A stretch of DNA of 64,000 nucleotides, from NCBI GenBank assembly GCA_046757685.1, contig JBHHYV010000005.1, forward strand, positions 374 through 64,373. The letters run 5' to 3'. Source of the stretch: Myxococcota bacterium (GTDB lineage: Bacteria; Myxococcota_A; UBA9160; SZUA-336). Position numbers and translations under genes: made by a program. The notes below the pieces were generated by a model. The model was not told the origin of the DNA, did no database searches, and was given only the letters and a program-made list of their open reading frames with translations. Shown one piece after another: positions 52,614 through 63,170 of the stretch (position 1 is its first letter; each line of letters starts with the position of its first letter).

Positions 52614-53588
52614 GTGAGGCGGGTCCCTACCTGGATGGCGCTCGTGCCTCTGCTGGCGCTCCTGTGGCCCGCCGGAGCGAACGCGAGCGCACCGAGGCTG
52701 AACGGCTTTCAGCTCGACCCTTCCGACGTACCGGTCGACGAGATCCTGCGGGGCGGTCCCCCTCGGGACGGAATCCCCGCACTCGACCACCCCGAGACGC
52801 TGCCCGCCGATCAGGCTCCGTGGCATCCCGAGGAGCTCGTCCTGGGGGTCGAGGTGTCGGGCGACGCGCGCGCCTACCCGATCGCGATCCTGAACTGGCA
52901 CGAGCTGGTCAACGACACGGTCGGGGGAGAACCGATCCTGATCTCCTACTGCCCCCTGTGCGGCAGCGGGCTCGTGTTCGACCGCCGCATCGACGGGGTC
53001 GCCCGCAGCTTCGGTGTCTCGGGGCTCCTCTACCAGTCCGACCTGCTGCTCTACGATCGCGAGTCGGACAGCCTCTGGTCCCAGCTCGAGTCGAAGGCCG
53101 TCACGGGCCCGGCCCGCGGATCGCGGCTGCGGGTCCTCCGGTCGGCACTCGTCCCCTGGGGCACCTGGCGCAGCCGCCACCCCGACACCCGGGTACTCTC
53201 TCTCGACACGGGGTACGGGCGCGACTACACGCAGTCACCCTACGGCGGATACGCACGCTCCGATCGCCTCTACTTTCCGGCACACCTGGATCGGCGCTAC
53301 CCGCCGAAGGCGCCCACCCTGGGCTTGCGGCTCGCCGACGGGACGGCGCGTGCGTTCCCGGCTCCAGAGATTCTGCGTGCCGGAGGTGAGATCGAGACGA
53401 AGTTTGCCAATCGACCCATCCGCGTGCGCTACGATGCCGCAGGGGGAACCTTCGATGTCACCGCGCCGCCCGACGTGGAGGTGATCGAGGCCTACTGGTT
53501 CGCCTGGTCGGCGTTCCACCCGAGCGCGAGCGTGTTCGTCGCGGTAGAGCCCGCGGCCGAAACCCATGGAGAGGAGACCTCTAGATGA
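52614..53588 (+). CDS. DUF3179-family secreted protein
   Basis: 324 aa; signal peptide MRRVPTWMALVPLLALLWPAGANA; DUF3179-like conserved blocks (PRDGIPALDHPE...ISYCPLCGSGLVFDRRIDG...LLYDRESDSLWSQ). Stop overlaps the downstream start (ATGA). Confidence 0.7.
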   Translation: MRRVPTWMALVPLLALLWPAGANASAPRLNGFQLDPSDVPVDEILRGGPPRDGIPALDHPETLPADQAPWHPEELVLGVEVSGDARAYPIAILNWHELVNDTVGGEPILISYCPLCGSGLVFDRRIDGVARSFGVSGLLYQSDLLLYDRESDSLWSQLESKAVTGPARGSRLRVLRSALVPWGTWRSRHPDTRVLSLDTGYGRDYTQSPYGGYARSDRLYFPAHLDRRYPPKAPTLGLRLADGTARAFPAPEILRAGGEIETKFANRPIRVRYDAAGGTFDVTAPPDVEVIEAYWFAWSAFHPSASVFVAVEPAAETHGEETSR

Positions 53589-54760
53589 CCCGACCCCGAC
53601 TCGTGCATGCCCTCGCCGCCTCGGCGATGGGCCTGGCCCTTCTCTGGGGCAGCTCGGCCGCGAGCGTGCAGGCTTCGGCGCTGCCGGCCCCCAGCACCTT
53701 GAACCCCTGTGCGGCCAAGACCCTGAATCCCTGCGCCGCCAAGACCCTCAACCCCTGTGCGGCGAAGACCCTGAATCCCTGTGCCGCCAAGACCCTCAAC
53801 GCCGCTGCCGCCCGGACCCTGAACCCCTGTGCGGCCAAGACCCTGAATCCCTGCGCGGCCAAGACCCTCAACCCCTGTGCGGCGAAGACCCTGAATCCCT
53901 GTGCCGCCAAGACCCTCAACGCCGCTGCTGCCCGGACCCTGAACCCCTGCGCGGCCAAGACCCTCAACCCCTGCCTGGCTCGCAAGCTCAATCCCTGTGC
54001 CGCCAAGACGCTGAATCCCTGCGCTGCGAAGCATTCGAGCGGGGACGGGGCCAGCCTGCTCGATCCGCGGACTGCGCGGCACCTGGTGACTCAGCTCGAG
54101 GTGAAGCCCCGCAGCATGATCCGGACCGTTGCCGCACACTCGAATCCCTGCAACCCGTGCGCAATGAAGCGGAACCCGTGCAACCCCTGCGCGATGAAGC
54201 ACAATCCGTGCAACCCCTGTGGCGCCAAGGGAAACCCCTGCAACCCGTGCGGAATGCGCAATCCCTGCAACCCCTGCGGAGGAGCGGCCCGCATCAACCC
54301 GTGCCAGTTCAAGCGTCCGACGGGGCTGTCGCTCGTGCGGGCCAGCCAGAAGGACCTCGTGGCCGAGGGCGAGAAGCTCTGGAACGACCGGTCGCTCGGC
54401 CGCAGCGGGCTGGCCTGCGCGAACTGTCACATCCAGAACTACATGCAGATGAACCCGACCTTCGGAAAGCCCTATCCGCACTACGTCGAGATGGTCCAGC
54501 AGCGCTCGGGTATCGACGAGGTCAGTGCCGACGAGATGGTGCAGTTCTGCATGATGGCCCCGATGGCCTCGAAGCCGCTGGGATGGCACTCGCGCGAGCT
54601 GGCCGCGCTGACCGCCTATGTCGAGCACATCCATCCCGGCTACCACCCCGTCGGAGGTGCCGGCGCCAACCCCTGCAACCCGTGCGGCATGAAGCACAAC
54701 CCGTGCAACCCGTGTGGCATGAAGCACAACCCCTGCAATCCATGCTCGAAGAAGATGTGA
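53585..54760 (+). CDS. secreted mono-heme c-type cytochrome flanked by Cys-rich NPC / CNPC (CxxC) tandem repeats
   Basis: 391 aa. Signal peptide MTRPRLVHALAASAMGLALLWGSSAASVQASA. About 15 x 8-aa repeats LNPCAAKT (with a 40-aa super-repeat duplicated). 5 x 10-aa repeats NPCNPC(A/G)MK(R/H). Cytochrome c core LVAEGEKLWNDRSLGRSGLACANCHIQNYMQMNPTF... (single CxxCH). 3 x C-terminal NPCNPCGMKH repeats. About 33 Cys in total. Confidence 0.75.
   Translation: MTRPRLVHALAASAMGLALLWGSSAASVQASALPAPSTLNPCAAKTLNPCAAKTLNPCAAKTLNPCAAKTLNAAAARTLNPCAAKTLNPCAAKTLNPCAAKTLNPCAAKTLNAAAARTLNPCAAKTLNPCLARKLNPCAAKTLNPCAAKHSSGDGASLLDPRTARHLVTQLEVKPRSMIRTVAAHSNPCNPCAMKRNPCNPCAMKHNPCNPCGAKGNPCNPCGMRNPCNPCGGAARINPCQFKRPTGLSLVRASQKDLVAEGEKLWNDRSLGRSGLACANCHIQNYMQMNPTFGKPYPHYVEMVQQRSGIDEVSADEMVQFCMMAPMASKPLGWHSRELAALTAYVEHIHPGYHPVGGAGANPCNPCGMKHNPCNPCGMKHNPCNPCSKKM
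53694..54040. repeat. ~15 copies of a 24-bp tandem repeat (ACCCTGAAYCCCTGYGCSGCCAAG), including a 120-bp block duplicated with 2 mismatches
   Basis: Seen directly; ~53697-53816 and ~53817-53936 are near-identical. Confidence 0.85.
54143..54306. repeat. 5 copies of a ~30-bp tandem repeat encoding NPCNPCxMKx; 3 further copies at ~54668-54746
   Basis: Seen directly (aatccctgcaacccgtgcgcaatgaagcgg and variants). Confidence 0.8.
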
Positions 54761-56133: not shown

Positions 56134-56766
56134 ATGGGAATCTCTTCGCGCATCCATGGCATCGGGCTCTCGCTGGCGTGGGCCGTCTTGCTCCTCGTAG
56201 GCATCACCTGCGCCGGAACTCTCTCGGGGGGCGCGGATCCTCAACACTACCGGCTCTCCGGGAGCTCCGACTGGCAGGTCGTGGGCTCCGACCGGGTTCT
56301 CGACGACCTCAGCGAGCGCTACCCGGAGTTCTTCGCCCTGGTCCTCGATCCGGATCGCCGCGAGGACATCGACCTGCGCGCGATTCGCGACGATCTGGAG
56401 CACCAGCCCGCGGACCGGCGCAACTACGACGCACTGAACGCCACGGCCATCGCCTACTTCGTGATGAACGAGCGCGCGGAGGAGGAGCGAGGCGGCGAGC
56501 TCTACTTCGTCCACTCCTTCCGGGCCGCCAAGCTGGTCGCCGTCCCCTGGCAGGCGTACGGACGTGTCGCGGACCCGGAGCTGCGCGACTCGATCCTGGA
56601 CTTCTTCGAAGACATCGCCAGCGGCAGCAAGCACTACTCGGCTCGCACCGCGAGCCGGCTGCACCGCGTCGTCTCCTCGCTGGCCCGCAAGGAAGACGAT
56701 GCGGCGAGGCTGGAGAGGATTCGCGCGCTCAGCGAGCGCCTGGCTCCTCCGGAGCCGGGCCGCTGA
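56134..56766 (+). CDS. hypothetical secreted protein or lipoprotein
   Basis: 210 aa; N-terminal signal ([28 protein letters not shown]), acidic soluble domain, no recognisable family. A weaker ECF-like motif GGTAGCC-N15-CGTC lies ~70 nt upstream. Confidence 0.5.
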
Positions 56767-59077
56767 GCGCTCCCTCGAGACCGGCATCGATGCGCACCCG
56801 TGCGGGGGGGAGGCAGCTTCGCTCGTTGCACGCCTGGTAGCGTACGTAGAGCGGACCCGGAGCCTGCACGGGGGCGTCGAGGGTCACCTGGCCCGAGTAG
56901 ACCCGAAGGGTCACGTCGGCGAACTCGGGCCGGAAGTCATGGCCCGGGGGGTAGCGGACTCCCGCGATCGCATCGGCCGCGGCGTTCTCGATCTGGGTGG
57001 GGATCAGGTAGGGGAGCGAGGCGGGGTTGGCGTTCACGTGCCAGCCCGCGGTGATGTGCAGTCGCACCCGCCGGCGCTCTGCGGAGGGCGGCGTCGATGC
57101 TCCGCTCGGCCCGGAGAGAACCTCGATGCGCACGCGATCCTCGCTGCGGGGAAGCCGTGTGGGGGCCGAAGGCGCCTGCGAGCCGCGCGCGACTCTCTGG
57201 GGTCGCTCCTGAAGGGCCAGCACCAGGCTTGCGAGAGCCGAAGGGGCGCGCGAGATCGGCTCGGAGAGGGCGGACGCCGCGCGGGTCCGCGCCTCGGCGT
57301 AGCGGGGATCGTCGGTCCGTGCGGCCAGCTCGGCGAGCACCCGGAGCGCAACCCCGCTCCCGGAAGGAAGCGCCCCGTCCTCGAGGGGCTGCGGGCGGAA
57401 GAGCAGACCATCGTTGCGCCGCGTGAGGTAGAAGCCGCCGAGCTCCGGATCCTGGAAGAGGCTCAGCATCTCGTCGGCCAGGCTCCGGGCCTGCTCGAGC
57501 CAGCGGGCGTCACCCGTGGCGGAGTGCAGCGCGAGAAGACCGTCCGCGAGATCGGCATAGTCGTCCAGCACTGCGCGCTCGCGTACCTGGCCGGCGATGT
57601 AGTCGCGGGCGAGTCCTCCCTCGGGCCGCCGGAGCCGCTGCAGCACGAAGCTCGCAGCGTCGGCTGCCAGCCGGACCCACTCGGGATGGTCCAGGCGCAG
57701 ACCCGCATCGACGAGTCCGCGGATGGCCAGCCCATTCCAGCCGGCGACCACCTTGTCGTCGCGCCGCACCTGCGGTCGCGCGCGCCGGCGCTGTAGCAGG
57801 CTCGCGCGCGCGGGGGCCTGTGACTCGATCCCTTCGAAGGAGGCCGTGGGGAGCCGGACCCGCAACACCCCCCGGCCCAGGTCGTCGCCCCCTCGGGTCG
57901 GCATCGGAGTCAGGGCGTAGACCGCGAGAAAGCGCTCGGCGCGCTCGGCCCCGAGAACCTGGCGGATCTCGGCCTCGGTCCACAGGTAGGACGCCCCCTC
58001 GACGTGACCGACCTCGGCGTCGAGCGCCGAGTAGAAGCCTCCCTCCGGATCGCGCATCTCGCCCTGCAGCCAGCGCACGATGTCCTCGCAGACTGCGCGA
58101 TAGAGGGGGCGCCGCGTTCGCTCCCAGGCCCGCGCATAGACGGAGAGGAGCTGGGCGTTGTCGTAGAGCATCTTCTCGAAGTGTGGAACGGACCAGCTGG
58201 GCTCGGTGGAGTAGCGGTGGAAACCGCCACCGAGCGCGTCGTGAATCCCGCCGAACGCCATCTCGTCGAGGGTGTGGGTGAGGCGCTCGAGATCCCCGGT
58301 CTCGCCGCCCAGGAGCAGCATCAGCTGGCTGGGACGGGGAAACTTGACGCGACGCGAGAAGCCACCGTGCAGCGGCTCGTACTGGTCGGCCAGCTCCCGA
58401 CGGGCGCGCGCGAGCAGCGCGGCGGGGTCGAGTGCGACCGAGGATGTGCCCGCGCGGCTCGCCGGTCCGCCGCGGCCCAGGACGCCCGCGATCCGCGCGG
58501 CGACCCGACGAACGCGGTCGGGATCGTCGCGCCAGACCCGCGCCACCTGCTCCAGGACCCTCGGAAAGCCGGGTCGGCCGGGCCGGTCTGTCGGCGGAAA
58601 GTAGGTCCCGGCGAAGAAGGGCTCTCCCTCGGGCGTCAGGAAGAGGTTGTTGGGCCAGCCGCCCTGGCCGGTCAGCGCCTGGGTCGCCGCCATGTACACC
58701 CGGTCGAGGTCGGGCCGTTCCTCGCGGTCCACCTTGATGCTGACGAAGGAGCGATTCATCTGCGCAGCGATCTCGGGATTCGAGAAGACCTCGCGCTCCA
58801 TCACGTGGCACCAGTAGCAGGTGCTGTAGCCGATCGAGACGAAGATCGGCCGGTTCTCGCGCCTGGCCCGCTGGAGCGCCTCCTCGCCCCAGGGGTACCA
58901 GTCGACGGGGTTGTCGGCGTGGAGCTGGAGGTAGGGGCTCGCCTCCCGAGCCAGGCGGTTGCGCGCCGCGGCGCCGGGGCTCCAGCCGGCCAGCACCGCG
59001 ATTGCGGCCAGGAGCGCCCCCGCGACAGGGCGACGCGACCCCCTCGCCGCCTCGGTCGAATCAGGAATGATTCTCAA
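56729..59077 (-). CDS. periplasmic thioredoxin-fold DUF255 (YyaL-like) protein with (alpha/alpha)6 domain and C-terminal DsbD-N-like domain
   Basis: Track ORF 56729..59632; probable TTG start ([38 protein letters not shown] signal peptide) preceded by GGAG. DUF255 block [59 protein letters not shown]; C-terminal ...[14 protein letters not shown] Cys pair. Confidence 0.7.
59058..59073. promoter_or_regulatory. AT-rich inverted repeat GAATCA-N4-TGATTC (Fur/PerR-box-like) at the divergent junction of the thioredoxin-like gene and the fur-family gene
   Basis: tcGAATCAggaaTGATTCtcaaatctcc; an AT-rich island in GC-rich DNA, overlapping the first codons of the thioredoxin-like gene and ~25 nt upstream of the fur-family GTG. 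Confidence 0.3.
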
Positions 59078-59098
59078 ATCTCCGCTAGCATAGCGCCC

Positions 59099-59569
59099 GT
59101 GGCCTCCGCGCTCCCCCAGCGTCGACACCGGACTCGCCAGCGCGAGCAGATCCTCGCGACCCTGCGCGCGACCGCGCGGCATCCGAGTGCTCGGGAGCTT
59201 CACCGCGAGCTGCAGCGCGACTGCCCACGGCTGGCGCTCGGGACCGTCTACCGAAACCTCGAGATCCTGGTGGCCGAGGGCCAGGTCCGCGAGGTCCCGA
59301 CCGCAGGTCGGGCCTCGCGCTACGACGGCAACCCGCTCCCGCACCATCACTTCATCTGCGAGTCGTGCGGCGAGATCCACGACCTGGACGTCCGGGTGCC
59401 CTCGGGTCTCATGGCTCGCGTCCAGGCGCGCTACGGGCTGCGCACGCGCCGCCTGCGCATCGACTTCTTCGGCCTGTGCCCCTCCTGTGGCGGCGCAGGG
59501 CCGAGGCGGACCCGTCGAACCAGCAACCACGCGGGAGTGACCCGCACAGAGGAGAGGAGCCATGGCTGA
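59099..59569 (+). CDS. Fur-family transcriptional regulator (PerR-like)
   Basis: C-terminal ~157 aa of track ORF 58004..59569 from GTG: [53 protein letters not shown]...[15 protein letters not shown]...[14 protein letters not shown] (Fur DNA-binding helix and two CxxC pairs). Confidence 0.8.
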
Positions 59570-59984
59570 TCTCAAGGGCACGAAGACCCACCAGAACCTG
59601 AAGGATGCCTTCGCAGGCGAGTCGCAGGCCAACCGCAGGTATCTCTACTTTGCGAAGGCCGCCGACATCGAGGGATACCCCGAGGTCGCGGGTCTCTTCA
59701 AGAACACCGCCGACGCCGAGACGGGTCACGCGCACGGGCACCTCGACTACCTGAAGCAGGTCGGCGACCCGGCCACCGACAAGCCGATCGGCGATACCTC
59801 GCTGAACCTGGTGGCCGCCGTGGCGGGCGAGACCTATGAGTACACGGAGATGTACCCGGGAATGGCCCGCGCGGCGCGGGACGAGGGCTTCAGCGATGTA
59901 GCGGAGTGGTTCGAAATGCTCGCCAAAGCCGAGAAGTCCCACGCCGGCCGCTTCCAGAAGGCGCTCGACACGCTCGACGACTGA
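59562..59984 (+). CDS. rubrerythrin-family ferritin-like diiron protein (no rubredoxin domain)
   Basis: 140 aa; ExxH diiron motifs ([14 protein letters not shown]; ETGHAHGH; [12 protein letters not shown]; AEKSHAGRF). Start overlaps the fur-family gene end. Confidence 0.85.
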
Positions 59985-60077
59985 GCCGCTCCGGCGCGGC
60001 GGGGGCCGGTGATGCACGCGCCCTCGCCGCCCGGAGGCGAGCGTCCCTCCTTCAGCCCTTCTCCCAGAGCGAGGCCC

Positions 60078-61367
60078 ATGACCGACCTGCCGCCGTCGCC
60101 CGCCTCCGAGGTCTCGATCCCACGCGCGACCGACCCCGGCTACCGCGACCCCCGCGCCCTCGAGGTCGAGCTCCGGCGGGTCTTTGCAAAGTGCCAGGAC
60201 TGCCGGCGCTGTCTTCCGCTCTGCCCCTCGTTCCCCACCCTCTTCCAGGCCCTCGATCGCCACGACGGAGATGCCGATCGGCTCGAGGCGGACGAGATGT
60301 GCTCCGTCATCGATCTCTGCTACCAGTGCAAGCTCTGCTACAACCACTGCCCCTACCATCCGCCTCACTCCTGGATGCTCGACTTTCCCAGACTGATGAC
60401 ACGCGCGAAGGTCGTCCGCGCGAGCGAGGAGGGGATTCCCTGGGCCGACCGGCTCGGAGCGCGCCAGGACCTGATGGGGCTCGTGTCGTGCCAGACGGCG
60501 GCGCTCACGAATACGGCGTTCCGGAGCCGCGCCCTCCGGCTGCTGATGGAGAAGGCCACTGGGATCGATCGACGCTGGCCGATGCCCCGCTACGAGCGCA
60601 GACCGATCTCGCGCTGGCTCGCCCAGCGTTCCCGCCCCGCCCATGCGCGTGAGGTGCTGCTCTTCACGACCTGCTTCGTGGAGTACTCCGAGGCCAGGAC
60701 CGCGCGCGCGCTGGTGCAGGTGCTCGAGCACAACGGAATCGGGGTGCGCGACGGCTACGAGGCCTGCTGCGGAGCACCCTTTCTGCACGCAGGCGACCTG
60801 GAGAGCGCGACGCGGAACGCGGAACGCGTCGTCGCCGCCCTCGCGCCCCAGGTCCGCGACGGGATCCCGATCGTCGTCCCGGGACCGACCTGCTCCTATC
60901 AGCTCAAGCGCGAGTACCCCGATCTGCTCGACAGCGAGGACGCGAGACGCGTCGCGGAGAGCGCCCTCGACATCGGAGAGTTCCTGTGGGCCCTGAAGGG
61001 GGAGGACGCCCTCTCCCGCGAGTTCCCCAGGCCCCTGGGCACGGTTGCCTACCACCTCCCCTGCCACCTGAAGTCGCAGAACATCGGCTTTCGGTCGCGC
61101 CAGCTGCTGCGACTCGCGGGTGCCGAGGTCCAGATGCTCGATCACTGCTCGGGGGTCGACGGGACCTGGGGCATGAAGGCTCGATTCTATGACCGGAGCC
61201 AGCGCGTCGCCGACCGGCTCGTCGACGCGATCCAGGCGATGCGCGCCGACACTGTCGCCACCGACTGCCCGCTGGCCGCGTTGCGAATCCAGGAACGGAC
61301 CGGCCGCGACGCCGTTCACCCCGTCGTTCTGCTACGCGACGCCTACGGGCTTCCGGAGCTCGGATGA
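60078..61367 (+). CDS. Fe-S oxidoreductase, GlpC/GlcF/HdrD-like (2 x [4Fe-4S] ferredoxin motifs + CCG domains)
   Basis: Track ORF 60009..61367; [12 protein letters not shown] and [12 protein letters not shown] cluster motifs, then cysteine-rich CCG-type regions (TTCFVEYS...ACCGAPF; PGPTCSYQ...LPCHLK...[11 protein letters not shown]). Confidence 0.75.
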
Positions 61368-61948
61368 GGCGGCTCGAGGCGGGTGAGATCCTGGACCTCA
61401 CGGCGTACGAGAAGGTTCGCGACGCGTTCCGCTCCCGGATCATCGCACTCAAGAACGATCGTCGGGTCGCGGTGGGCGATCGGCTGAGCTTTCTGTTCGA
61501 GAACCGGGACACGGTCTCGCTCCAGGTCCACGAGATGATCCGGACGGAACGACTCGTCGACCCCGAGGCGATTGCGCAGGAGCTCGAGATCTACAACGAG
61601 CTGATTCCCAAAGATGGGGAGCTCTCGGCGACCCTGATGATCGAGATTCCCGATGCGGGGGACATCCGGACGCAGCTCGATCGCCTGATCGGAATCGATG
61701 AGCACGTGCATCTCGATATCGGTGCCGAGTCCGTGCAGGCCACCTTCGATCCCAAGCAGTTCGAGGAGGACCGGATCTCGGCGGTCCAGTACGTGCGCTT
61801 CCCGCTCGGACCGAGGCTGGCGAGGGACTTCGTGGACCCTCGGATCGAGATCCGGCTTCGCGTCGCACATCCGGCCTACGTCGCCTCGACGACGCTCGGC
61901 GAGGCGACCCGCCGCGCGCTCGCGCGCGACCTGCTCCCCGAGGGCTGA
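61364..61948 (+). CDS. DUF3501-family protein
   Basis: 194 aa [64 protein letters not shown]...; start overlaps upstream stop (ATGA). Confidence 0.65.
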
Positions 61949-62024: not shown

Positions 62025-63170
62025 ATGGCAGGACCCCTGACGGGAATCCGGGTGATCGAGCTCCAGGGCATCGGGCCCGGACCCTTCTGCGGAATGATGC
62101 TGGCCGACATGGGGGCGGAGATCTTGCGGATCGATCGCGCATCGAGCGTTCCCTCGCAGCCGCCCGAGGGCAGGCGCGCCGACATTCTCGGCCGAGGTCG
62201 CCGCAGCGTCGCCGTGGACCTCAAGCGCGCAGACGGGGTCGAGACGGTCCTGCGCCTGGTCGAGCGTGCCGATGTGATCTACGAGGGCTTCCGGCCCGGG
62301 GTCGCGGAGCGCCTGGGCGTGGGGCCCCAGGTCTGCCTGGAGCGCAACCCGCGCATCGTCTACGGCCGCATGACGGGCTGGGGGCAGGAGGGTCCGCTGG
62401 CGCAGGCCGCAGGGCACGACATCAACTACATCGCGCTGAGCGGCGCGCTCCACGCGATCGGCCGGGCCGGAGAACGTCCCGTTCCACCGCTCAACCTCGT
62501 CGGTGACTTCGGAGGCGGGGGGATGCTCCTCGCCTACGGCATCGTCTGCGCGCTCGTCGAGCGGGCGACCTCGGGCCGGGGTCAGGTCGTCGATGCGGCG
62601 ATGGTCGACGGCTCGGCGGCCCTGATGGCGATCATCTATGGAATGGCCAGCCTCGGCTTGTGGCGCGACGAGCGGGGAGTGAACCTGCTCGACACCGGTG
62701 CCCACTTCTACGACACCTACGAGACGCGCGACGGCAAGTACGTCTCGATCGGATCCATCGAGCCGCAGTTCTACGCCCTTCTCCTGCAGCTCACGGGCCT
62801 CGAGGGCGAGGATCTGCCGCGCCAGAACGACCGCACCGCGTGGCCCGCGATGCACGAGCGCCTGGCCGAGATCTTCCGGACCAAGACGCGCGACGAGTGG
62901 TGCGAGATCATGGAGGGCACCGACGTCTGCTTCGCGCCCGTACTCTCCCTCTCCGAGGCGCCCCAGTCGGCCCACGCCCGGGCTCGCAACACCTTCCGCG
63001 AGATCGACGGCGTCATCCAGCCGGCACCGGCCCCTCGATTCAGCCGCACGCGTCCCGAGCTGGACCGCCCGCCGGCCTACCCGGGGGAGCACACGGAGCC
63101 CGCGCTGCTCGAGTGGGGCTTCGAGCCCCACGAGATCGAACGCCTCCGGGAGGCCAAGGCCATCGTCTGA
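62025..63170 (+). CDS. CoA-transferase family III (CaiB/BaiF; alpha-methylacyl-CoA racemase-like)
   Basis: C-terminal ~381 aa of track ORF 61698..63170 from [38 protein letters not shown]; catalytic Asp region ...[13 protein letters not shown]. Confidence 0.85.

Follow-up and report, generated by a model that had tools for sequence, protein, structure and literature searches.

Operons in which a perR gene precedes a rubrerythrin gene (rbr) are classical. In Desulfovibrio, PerR boxes were predicted in 2004 upstream of ahpC, rbr2 and perR (cACAGGAATGATTCCTGTT and others; Rodionov et al., PMC545781), and an operon of a fur-like gene and a rubrerythrin gene in D. vulgaris was noted in a 2025 preprint on the rubrerythrin of Burkholderia pseudomallei (BpRbr). 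A second described system is the RBR-RFO-DUF3501 trio, for which Cardenas et al. 2016 (PMC5114695) introduced the name RFO and found co-occurrence in 185 genomes, in a text that does not contain the word 'PerR'. Electron supply to rubrerythrin by its partners is a hypothesis expressed both in that survey and in the BpRbr preprint. Here we analyse a 64-kb stretch of DNA (the window) from a contig of about 70% GC, which according to the NCBI annotation belongs to a Myxococcota metagenome-assembled genome. It carries a PerR-like Fur-family gene followed by genes for rubrerythrin, RFO and DUF3501, and a yyaL-like gene diverges from them. We consider it likely that perR-rbr-(hairpin)-RFO-DUF3501 forms an autoregulated peroxide-stress operon, in which a PerR-type repressor acts on a conserved box next to its own gene.

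To study the operator, PerR-like loci were taken from species genomes and metagenomes, their neighbouring genes were located by tblastn, and about 25 orthologous loci were compared. The regions upstream of perR in the relatives share one A/T-rich dyad, AAAtCAGGAAT-N-ATTCCTGattt, and all of about 24 orthologous sites upstream of perR contain its GAA-N3-TTC core, with one or two cores per upstream region. On a weight matrix of 17 positions, built from 19 sites of relatives with the window left out, positions 59061-59077 reach 25.9 bits, whereas no other site in the 64 kb exceeds 11.7 bits, and the maxima per 64 kb in 100 simulated sequences have a mean of 13.3 and a peak of 19.5 bits. The box also travels with the PerR-like regulator family across phyla. 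In a test set of 123 PerR-like loci from other phyla, outside the training of the matrix, a match (at least 16 bits within 150 nt upstream) precedes the gene in 57, the expected number being 0.007 per 160 nt, and among those PerR-like loci that are directly followed by rbr the fraction is 21/34.

A preliminary description of this DNA had drawn attention to an AT-rich inverted repeat, GAATCA-N4-TGATTC, exactly at the divergent junction, and had called it Fur-box-like. The repeat is real: it is perfect and has no other exact match in the window, and the 37 nt from 59056 to 59092 have 40% GC compared with 74-79% in the flanks and 70% in the whole window. The comparison with known boxes had to be rejected, as a search of the whole window with up to 3 mismatches gave no match to the Fur box of E. 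coli or the Per box of B. subtilis (GATAATGATAATCATTATC, TTATAATNATTATAA). As to position, the repeat does lie near the junction, but with the starts that match the NCBI proteins it falls in yyaL codons 2-7. A conserved operator is indeed found there; its GAA-N3-TTC core, however, is centred on axis 59069, 3.5 bp from the axis of the repeat. Around this 7-1-7 axis the GAA/TTC pairs show complementarity in 24/24 (+-2), 24/24 (+-3) and 23/24 sites (+-4). The interpretation as a PerR operator is supported once the register is shifted.

The promoter of perR can be traced in the same way. A hexamer TAnnnT followed after 6-8 nt by an in-frame GTG (ATG once) occurs at 23/23 orthologous loci tabulated, and because this spacing leaves no room for a ribosome-binding site, it suggests that the perR mRNA is leaderless. 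We compared the distance between the box and this -10-like hexamer in the window (59062-59099) and at loci L001-L012, L081-L090, L162 and L166-L171, and the distances fall into two classes. In the long class (18 loci) the box centre lies 38-40 nt upstream of the -10, with a TTGC -35 in between, which places the centre near -52. In the short class, comprising the window, L162, L166-L168, L169 and L171, the distance is 16-17 nt, there is no separate -35, and the centre lies near -30. The two classes thus differ by about 22 bp, or two helical turns, and the short class consists of exactly those loci that have a divergent yyaL.

The regulator itself is PerR-like. It matches Pfam PF01475 with 82 bits (cut-off 23), that is, the Fur-family winged-helix and dimerisation fold, and its closest solved structures are the PerR proteins of S. 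pyogenes (4i7h, 5e-18) and B. subtilis (2fe3, 7e-16). When aligned to 2fe3 with HMMER, it shows counterparts of all five regulatory ligands of PerR (H37, D85, H91, H93 and D104 in B. subtilis numbering; HPSA/SRYD/HHH/IHD) and of the four cysteines of the structural Zn(Cys)4 site (CESC and CPSC, aligned with C96/C99 and C136/C139), which supports the earlier assignment of a PerR-like regulator. In window numbering the ligands are H28, D76, H82, H84 and D95, and they are invariant, as are both CxxC pairs, among the 31 family members aligned. Both regulatory Asp residues of PerR are Glu in non-PerR Fur proteins (PMC12754779). In addition, the scan within the 64-kb window places a candidate cognate box upstream of the regulator's own gene, where it is kept in the orthologues. 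As a separate observation, the family combines an invariant Arg at residue 52 with the G-containing box half-site CAGGAAT.

On the other side of the box, the divergent gene encodes, as the preliminary description had it, a secreted YyaL/DUF255 thioredoxin-fold protein with a DsbD-N-like domain (NCBI protein P0217 is identical to it over 782 aa). Both Pfam domains are found, and a signal-peptide-like N-terminus stands in frame before the conserved NRLAxEASPYL, the length being like that of homologues; the putative secretion signal was recognised by eye as an N-terminal hydrophobic segment comparable to theirs. The translation contains a CYWC motif and, near the C-terminus, a DsbD-alpha-like Cys pair (QACNERSC). 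Combination of YyaL with DsbD_N is the usual architecture of the family: among the 120 best YyaL homologues listed, nearly all have an entry for PF11412 (DsbD_N). The two start codons had been put about 20 nt apart, and this is correct: TTG 59077 of yyaL and GTG 59099 of perR have 21 nt in between, and both starts reproduce the NCBI proteins (782 and 156 aa) with 100% identity and coverage.

The divergent pairing is confined to the window's sub-clade. In the first 11 relatives there is no conserved divergent partner, the upstream genes being ferredoxin-like, membrane protein, fumarase-like, DUF47/Pit and others. The idea that yyaL is unique to the window genome was nevertheless overturned by L162: it encodes the closest YyaL homologue (58% identical), a box of 22 bits lies about 100 nt before the start of that gene, and the contig ends in a fragment of a divergent perR. 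The divergent yyaL/box arrangement is present in L162, L166-L168, L169 and L171, and L166/L167 repeat the whole neighbourhood (ECF sigma, SoxA/TsdA-type cytochrome, multihaem cytochrome, yyaL, perR-rbr-RFO-DUF3501, CoA-transferase, MlaD). The yyaL strand of L166/L169 has a perfect TATAAT, beginning 11 nt from the box centre, as well as a leader of about 77 nt in which GGAGG precedes the ATG. In the window, the yyaL TTG is found beyond the box, towards perR. The trio does stand behind a PerR-like gene that diverges from yyaL in the window, with the pairing restricted to the sub-clade. At L164 and L165, yyaL homologues diverge from ECF sigma/anti-sigma genes and have no strong box. Apart from this clade, two unrelated loci, L028 (a Planctomycetales metagenome-assembled genome) and L123 (a metagenome contig of 42% GC), have a YyaL homologue 0.5-4.6 kb downstream of a PerR-like gene, which hints at a wider PerR-YyaL association.

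Based on these observations, we propose the following scheme. A metal-loaded PerR-type repressor would bind the single dyad box CAGGAAT-G-ATTCTCA. With its centre at about -30 from the putative transcription start, the box would cover the -35 position of the apparently leaderless perR promoter, so that the bound repressor would exclude RNA polymerase. By analogy with the mechanism of B. subtilis PerR, peroxide would oxidise the regulatory metal site, the repressor would leave the DNA and the operon would be expressed. The rubredoxin-less rubrerythrin would then reduce H2O2 at its di-iron site, while RFO, with its 4Fe-4S and CCG clusters, and DUF3501 would serve as dedicated partners, most likely as an electron-delivery module replacing the rubredoxin domain; DUF3501 may be an adaptor. 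The GC-rich hairpin after rbr probably holds the rbr transcript above the RFO-DUF3501 transcript. Since the same box abuts yyaL in the window's sub-clade, this gene for a periplasmic thioredoxin-fold/DsbD-N-like thiol oxidoreductase would probably be co-repressed. The features are collected in Table 1.

Table 1. Genes and sequence elements of the perR locus (window coordinates)
Feature	Position	Strand	Remarks
yyaL-like gene	56729-59077	-	Pfam Thioredox_DsbH/DUF255 E 3e-73 and C-terminal DsbD_N E 8e-9; 782 aa; TTG start
Inverted repeat of the preliminary description, GAATCAGGAATGATTC (GAATCA-GGAA-TGATTC)	59058-59073	.	Axis 59065/66; overlaps the conserved box
Extended AT-rich element AATCAGGAATGATTCTCAAAT	59059-59079	.	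Surrounds the candidate operator
Candidate PerR operator CAGGAAT-G-ATTCTCA	59062-59076	.	7-1-7 dyad, axis 59069; conserved in relatives
-10-like hexamer TAGCAT, perR promoter	59086-59091	+	7 nt before GTG; inferred from cross-locus conservation
Possible yyaL -10, TATGCT	59092-59087	-	Reverse-strand reading
perR-like Fur-family gene	59099-59569	+	Pfam FUR E 4e-23; 156 aa; GTG start
Rubrerythrin gene (rbr)	59562-59984	+	Pfam Rubrerythrin E 6e-31; 140 aa; no rubredoxin domain
GC-rich hairpin, rbr-RFO spacer	59985-60042	+	Predicted fold -53 kcal/mol, z -1.6; directly after rbr stop
RFO gene	60078-61367 (alternative GTG start 60009)	+	Pfam two 4Fe-4S motifs and CCG E 6e-19; 429 aa (alternative 452 aa)
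DUF3501 gene	61364-61948	+	Pfam PF12007 E 2e-62, 211 bits; 194 aa
CoA-transferase family III gene	62025-63170	+	Pfam; 76 nt 3' of DUF3501; unit membership uncertain

A number of observations weigh against this scheme. The right outer half of the window box (ATTCTCA) is degenerate, 4/7 pairs being complementary, and the full Desulfovibrio consensus ACAGGAATNATTCCTGT is unmatched within 3 mismatches, so that identity of the two boxes is limited to the left half and the core. A scan of 58700-59700 for consensus sigma-70 promoters and terminators found nothing, and the window has no recognisable -35 hexamer; consequently, the promoter elements are identified solely by their conservation across loci. 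In most relatives the box lies near -52, which is a less typical position for a repressor. Where B. subtilis PerR has Asn61, which has been used as a PerR criterion for the discrimination between Per box and Fur box (M. xanthus PexR paper, PMC12754779), the window regulator has Arg (residue 52, TVYRNLE), as in Fur proteins, and this Arg does not vary in the 31 aligned members. We read it as fitting a different, G-containing operator (CAGGAAT) and not as excluding a PerR-type mechanism; still, it keeps a metal-sensor reading alive. A cofactor-binding signature is absent from DUF3501, and all of its structural relatives belong to its own family. The yyaL gene starts with TTG, GGAG precedes this codon by just 2 nt (poor Shine-Dalgarno spacing) and the box falls within the first codons; the window also lacks the leader of about 77 nt that the relatives carry between box and yyaL start, so that expression and regulation of yyaL in this genome are uncertain. 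Finally, the organism is represented by a metagenome-assembled genome.

Other explanations were also considered. It could be argued that the true operator is the GAATCA-N4-TGATTC dyad, or that both overlapping dyads bind two repressor dimers. Classical Fur operators are overlapping arrays, and the dyad, complementary 6/6 in the window only, reaches 5/6 in two relatives, the closest yyaL-linked loci L162 and L166. Nonetheless, its mean complementarity in the relatives is 0.54, about that of unconstrained A/T-rich flanks, compared with 0.68 on the 7-1-7 axis, where the GAA/TTC pairs are near-invariant. A 6-4-6 spacing is not known as a Fur-family geometry, and the repeat can best be explained as a side effect of the longer palindrome AATCAGGAAT-G-ATTCCTGATT, intact in L086. 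We therefore regard this alternative as very improbable. It also seems unlikely to us that the regulator is a metal-homeostasis member of the Fur family (Fur, Mur or Zur-like), in which case the operon would answer iron or manganese and rubrerythrin would be mainly a ferritin-like metal handler. The Arg at the N61 position fits such a role, as does the additional match of the window rubrerythrin to the Ferritin family in Pfam, together with the promiscuous binding of several metals by the B. pseudomallei homologue (2025 BpRbr preprint). Against this, the regulator has all five PerR-type ligands, including both Asp residues, and its closest solved relatives are PerR; the window contains no Fur box, the left half-site and core of the box match the predictions for Desulfovibrio ahpC, rbr2 and perR, and family members across phyla adjoin rubrerythrins.

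A third explanation accepts the PerR-type operator but lets it control the perR operon only. Contact with yyaL would then be accidental, due to a compacted or misassembled intergenic region or to a mis-set start, and yyaL would be controlled elsewhere, for example by an ECF sigma factor, as the arrangement of its homologues at L164 and L165 might indicate. Eighteen relatives have box and operon but no yyaL, and the window lacks both the yyaL leader and the TATAAT of L166/L169, all of which makes this explanation a real possibility. What keeps us from favouring it is that at least four distinct sequence versions (window; L162; L166-L168; L169/L171) show the divergent pairing with the box between the genes, even though YyaL of L162 and of the window share an identity of only 58%, and that in L166/L169 the perfect yyaL TATAAT stands so close to the box centre. 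Occlusion of both divergent genes by one operator, as originally proposed, is thus plausible given the conserved box, but as the leader is missing and the TTG is located beyond the box towards perR, co-repression of yyaL is plausible for the clade and uncertain in the window genome.

With the PerR-regulated operon as the preferred reading, its products can be considered more closely. The window rubrerythrin matches the 140-aa chain 9onm_A with an E-value of 1e-61, 4di0 with a similar one and the S. tokodaii sulerythrin 1j30 with 4e-57; 4di0 is the B. pseudomallei protein according to the reference list of the BpRbr preprint. For proteins of this kind, such similarity to the B. pseudomallei rubrerythrin (4di0/9onm) and to sulerythrin is nearly as high as it can be. 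Having 140 aa, no rubredoxin domain and the ExxH/ExxE di-iron motifs in the alignment, it belongs to the aerobic, sulerythrin-type rubrerythrins. Its gene is preceded by the Shine-Dalgarno sequence GGAGAGGAG and adjoins those of RFO and DUF3501 in both the window and relatives, in line with the co-location used in PMC5114695. RFO is a GlpC/HdrD-like Fe-S oxidoreductase with two CxxCxxCxxxCP motifs, two CCG domains (CCG/CSG) and matches to Fer4_7/8/10; a sequence search found no solved relative. Of its possible starts we favour ATG 60078, which gives the 429 aa called on an identical, independent Logan contig and has GAGG upstream; relatives have 431 aa.

DUF3501 matches its profile over positions 3-187 of 187. 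A relative in the PDB, 3fjv (E 1e-24), is annotated without function, and the AlphaFold model (pLDDT 90) matches 3fjv only, with a TM score of 0.90. The family is large (2166 clusters at 50% identity in a search of 1.8 billion representatives), and it includes fusions to a ferritin-like domain (P0468, 383 aa), to a weakly matched HIT domain (P0342) and to an Rce1-like protease domain (P0338, 538 aa). P0342 is the one scanned member of a class of about 300 aa that is common among the best DUF3501 representatives. DUF3501-RFO fusions have also been published (PMC5114695), and together with the ferritin-like fusion they lend mild support to the idea that DUF3501 may contact both partners. The trio had been described as recurring and uncharacterised. 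It does recur, but it was already named and surveyed in 2016 (PMC5114695).

The rbr-RFO spacer contains a predicted hairpin. In the window alone it is not significant against shuffled sequences, and it has no U-tract. We retain it because relatives carry analogous structures: perfect hairpins of 11-16 bp with unrelated stems, again without U-tract, follow rbr in L003, L004, L007, L008, L010, L017, L082, L084, L085 and L166-L171, while in L002, L005 and L086 the rbr-RFO spacer is short and a hairpin is absent. The structure may attenuate transcription within the operon or stabilise the 3' end of the mRNA, thereby setting the ratio of the rbr transcript to that of RFO and DUF3501.

As regards gene content, the five genes and their stated domains were all confirmed by Pfam. 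The two overlapping junctions are also present in the sequence, with the perR stop and rbr start overlapping by 8 nt (ATGGCTGA) and the RFO stop and DUF3501 start by 4 nt (ATGA). Tight packing holds for these two pairs but not for rbr and RFO, which are separated by a 93-nt spacer. The window PerR, with 156 aa, is longer than most of its relatives (about 140-147 aa); its Arg/Thr-rich C-terminal tail (59530-59569) extends into the rbr start, giving the 8-nt overlap, whereas in relatives the two genes are about 18 nt apart. perR is the first operon gene in the relatives, and the order perR-rbr-RFO-DUF3501 is kept in Myxococcota relatives with regulators of 43-63% identity. Loci with this order are L002, L004, L005, L007, L008, L010, L017, L085, L089, L166-L169 and L171, and each of them has the box in front of perR. 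A look-up of exact proteins returned no record for the window PerR and, for DUF3501, a single 3-kb contig without the divergent junction.

Downstream, the position of the CoA-transferase III gene is kept in the closest relatives (L017, L166, L167, L168, L169 and L171). Beyond yyaL, the window has a multihaem cytochrome gene, and between the two lies an open reading frame (ORF) of 210 aa (56134-56766, + strand) with a lipoprotein-like N-terminus and no Pfam match, which runs convergently into the 3' end of yyaL with an overlap of 38 nt. L166/L167 have nothing at this place, only 34 nt separating yyaL from the cytochrome gene, and in these relatives yyaL, located upstream, is probably co-transcribed with the cytochrome gene. 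Farther out, the ORF at 53585-54760 (+ strand) encodes an unusual Cys/Pro-rich repeat cytochrome, in which many tandem LNPCAAKT and NPCNPCGMK-type repeats surround a cytochrome-c-like core. Its syntenic counterpart in L162/L166 matches SoxA-TsdA_cyt-c, in L162 with an additional weak match to Cornifin repeats.

It is tempting to speculate that a single PerR operator co-ordinates a cytoplasmic rubrerythrin-RFO-DUF3501 peroxidase module with a periplasmic YyaL/DsbD-N thiol oxidoreductase, and that this operator moved by about two helical turns between sister lineages. We put this forward tentatively and consider it rather doubtful as a whole. If it is true, however, it would provide the first physiological role, in peroxide defence or repair, for the widespread YyaL-DsbD_N family, and the shift of the operator (-30 versus -52) on the same leaderless promoter would amount to a natural experiment on a Fur-family repressor acting from two positions. 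The PerR-type regulator and its operator also offer independent genomic support for the aerobic-type rubrerythrin trio as a peroxide-stress device, and the locus is a compact system for testing the roles of RFO and DUF3501. What it adds to previous knowledge is modest: a PerR-type regulator with its box in front of the aerobic-type trio, an apparently leaderless promoter with two operator positions, YyaL-DsbD_N as a candidate member of the PerR regulon and a recurrent hairpin after rbr.

How, then, does the locus compare with the systems already described? The YyaL-like protein resembles YyaL/SSP411 (DUF255) proteins and the N-terminal domain of DsbD in its CxxC thioredoxin domain and its C-terminal DsbD-N-like domain with a Cys pair, and it has a weak match to the (alpha/alpha)6-barrel-like middle region of the former. 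It differs from other YyaL/SSP411 proteins in the link to a PerR box, seen only in the window's sub-clade. With B. subtilis PerR the regulator shares the Fur-family fold, the Cys4 zinc site and the His3Asp2 regulatory site, and the operator shares the 7-1-7 dyad geometry and AAT-N-ATT core of the B. subtilis Per box TTATAATnATTATAA. Unlike that box, it has G/C at positions 4-7 (CAGGAAT compared with TTATAAT) and the protein has Arg in place of N61. As in the cluster of Cardenas et al. 2016 (PMC5114695), the rbr, RFO and DUF3501 families are united in one cluster, and the working hypothesis is that the partners replace the rubredoxin domain; here, in contrast, the operon is headed by a PerR-type gene with its box, and a hairpin separates rbr from RFO. 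The closest parallel to the regulatory part is perR-rbr-rdl of Desulfovibrio vulgaris, where a Fur-family PerR-like gene likewise heads a rubrerythrin operon with a dyad box just upstream, implying autoregulation, and the half-site CAGGAAT and the AAT-N-ATT core of the boxes predicted for Desulfovibrio ahpC and rbr2 are identical in the window. Unlike in D. vulgaris, the rubrerythrin is of the rubredoxin-less aerobic type, RFO and DUF3501 take the place of a rubredoxin-like gene after it, the box is degenerate in its right half, the promoter is apparently leaderless, and the host is a GC-rich, uncultured member of the Myxococcota. Regulator type, operator type, trio and YyaL architecture have thus each been described or predicted before. 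The locus is a peroxide-defence cluster of an uncultured myxobacterium, a well-formed yet ordinary case of already described systems.

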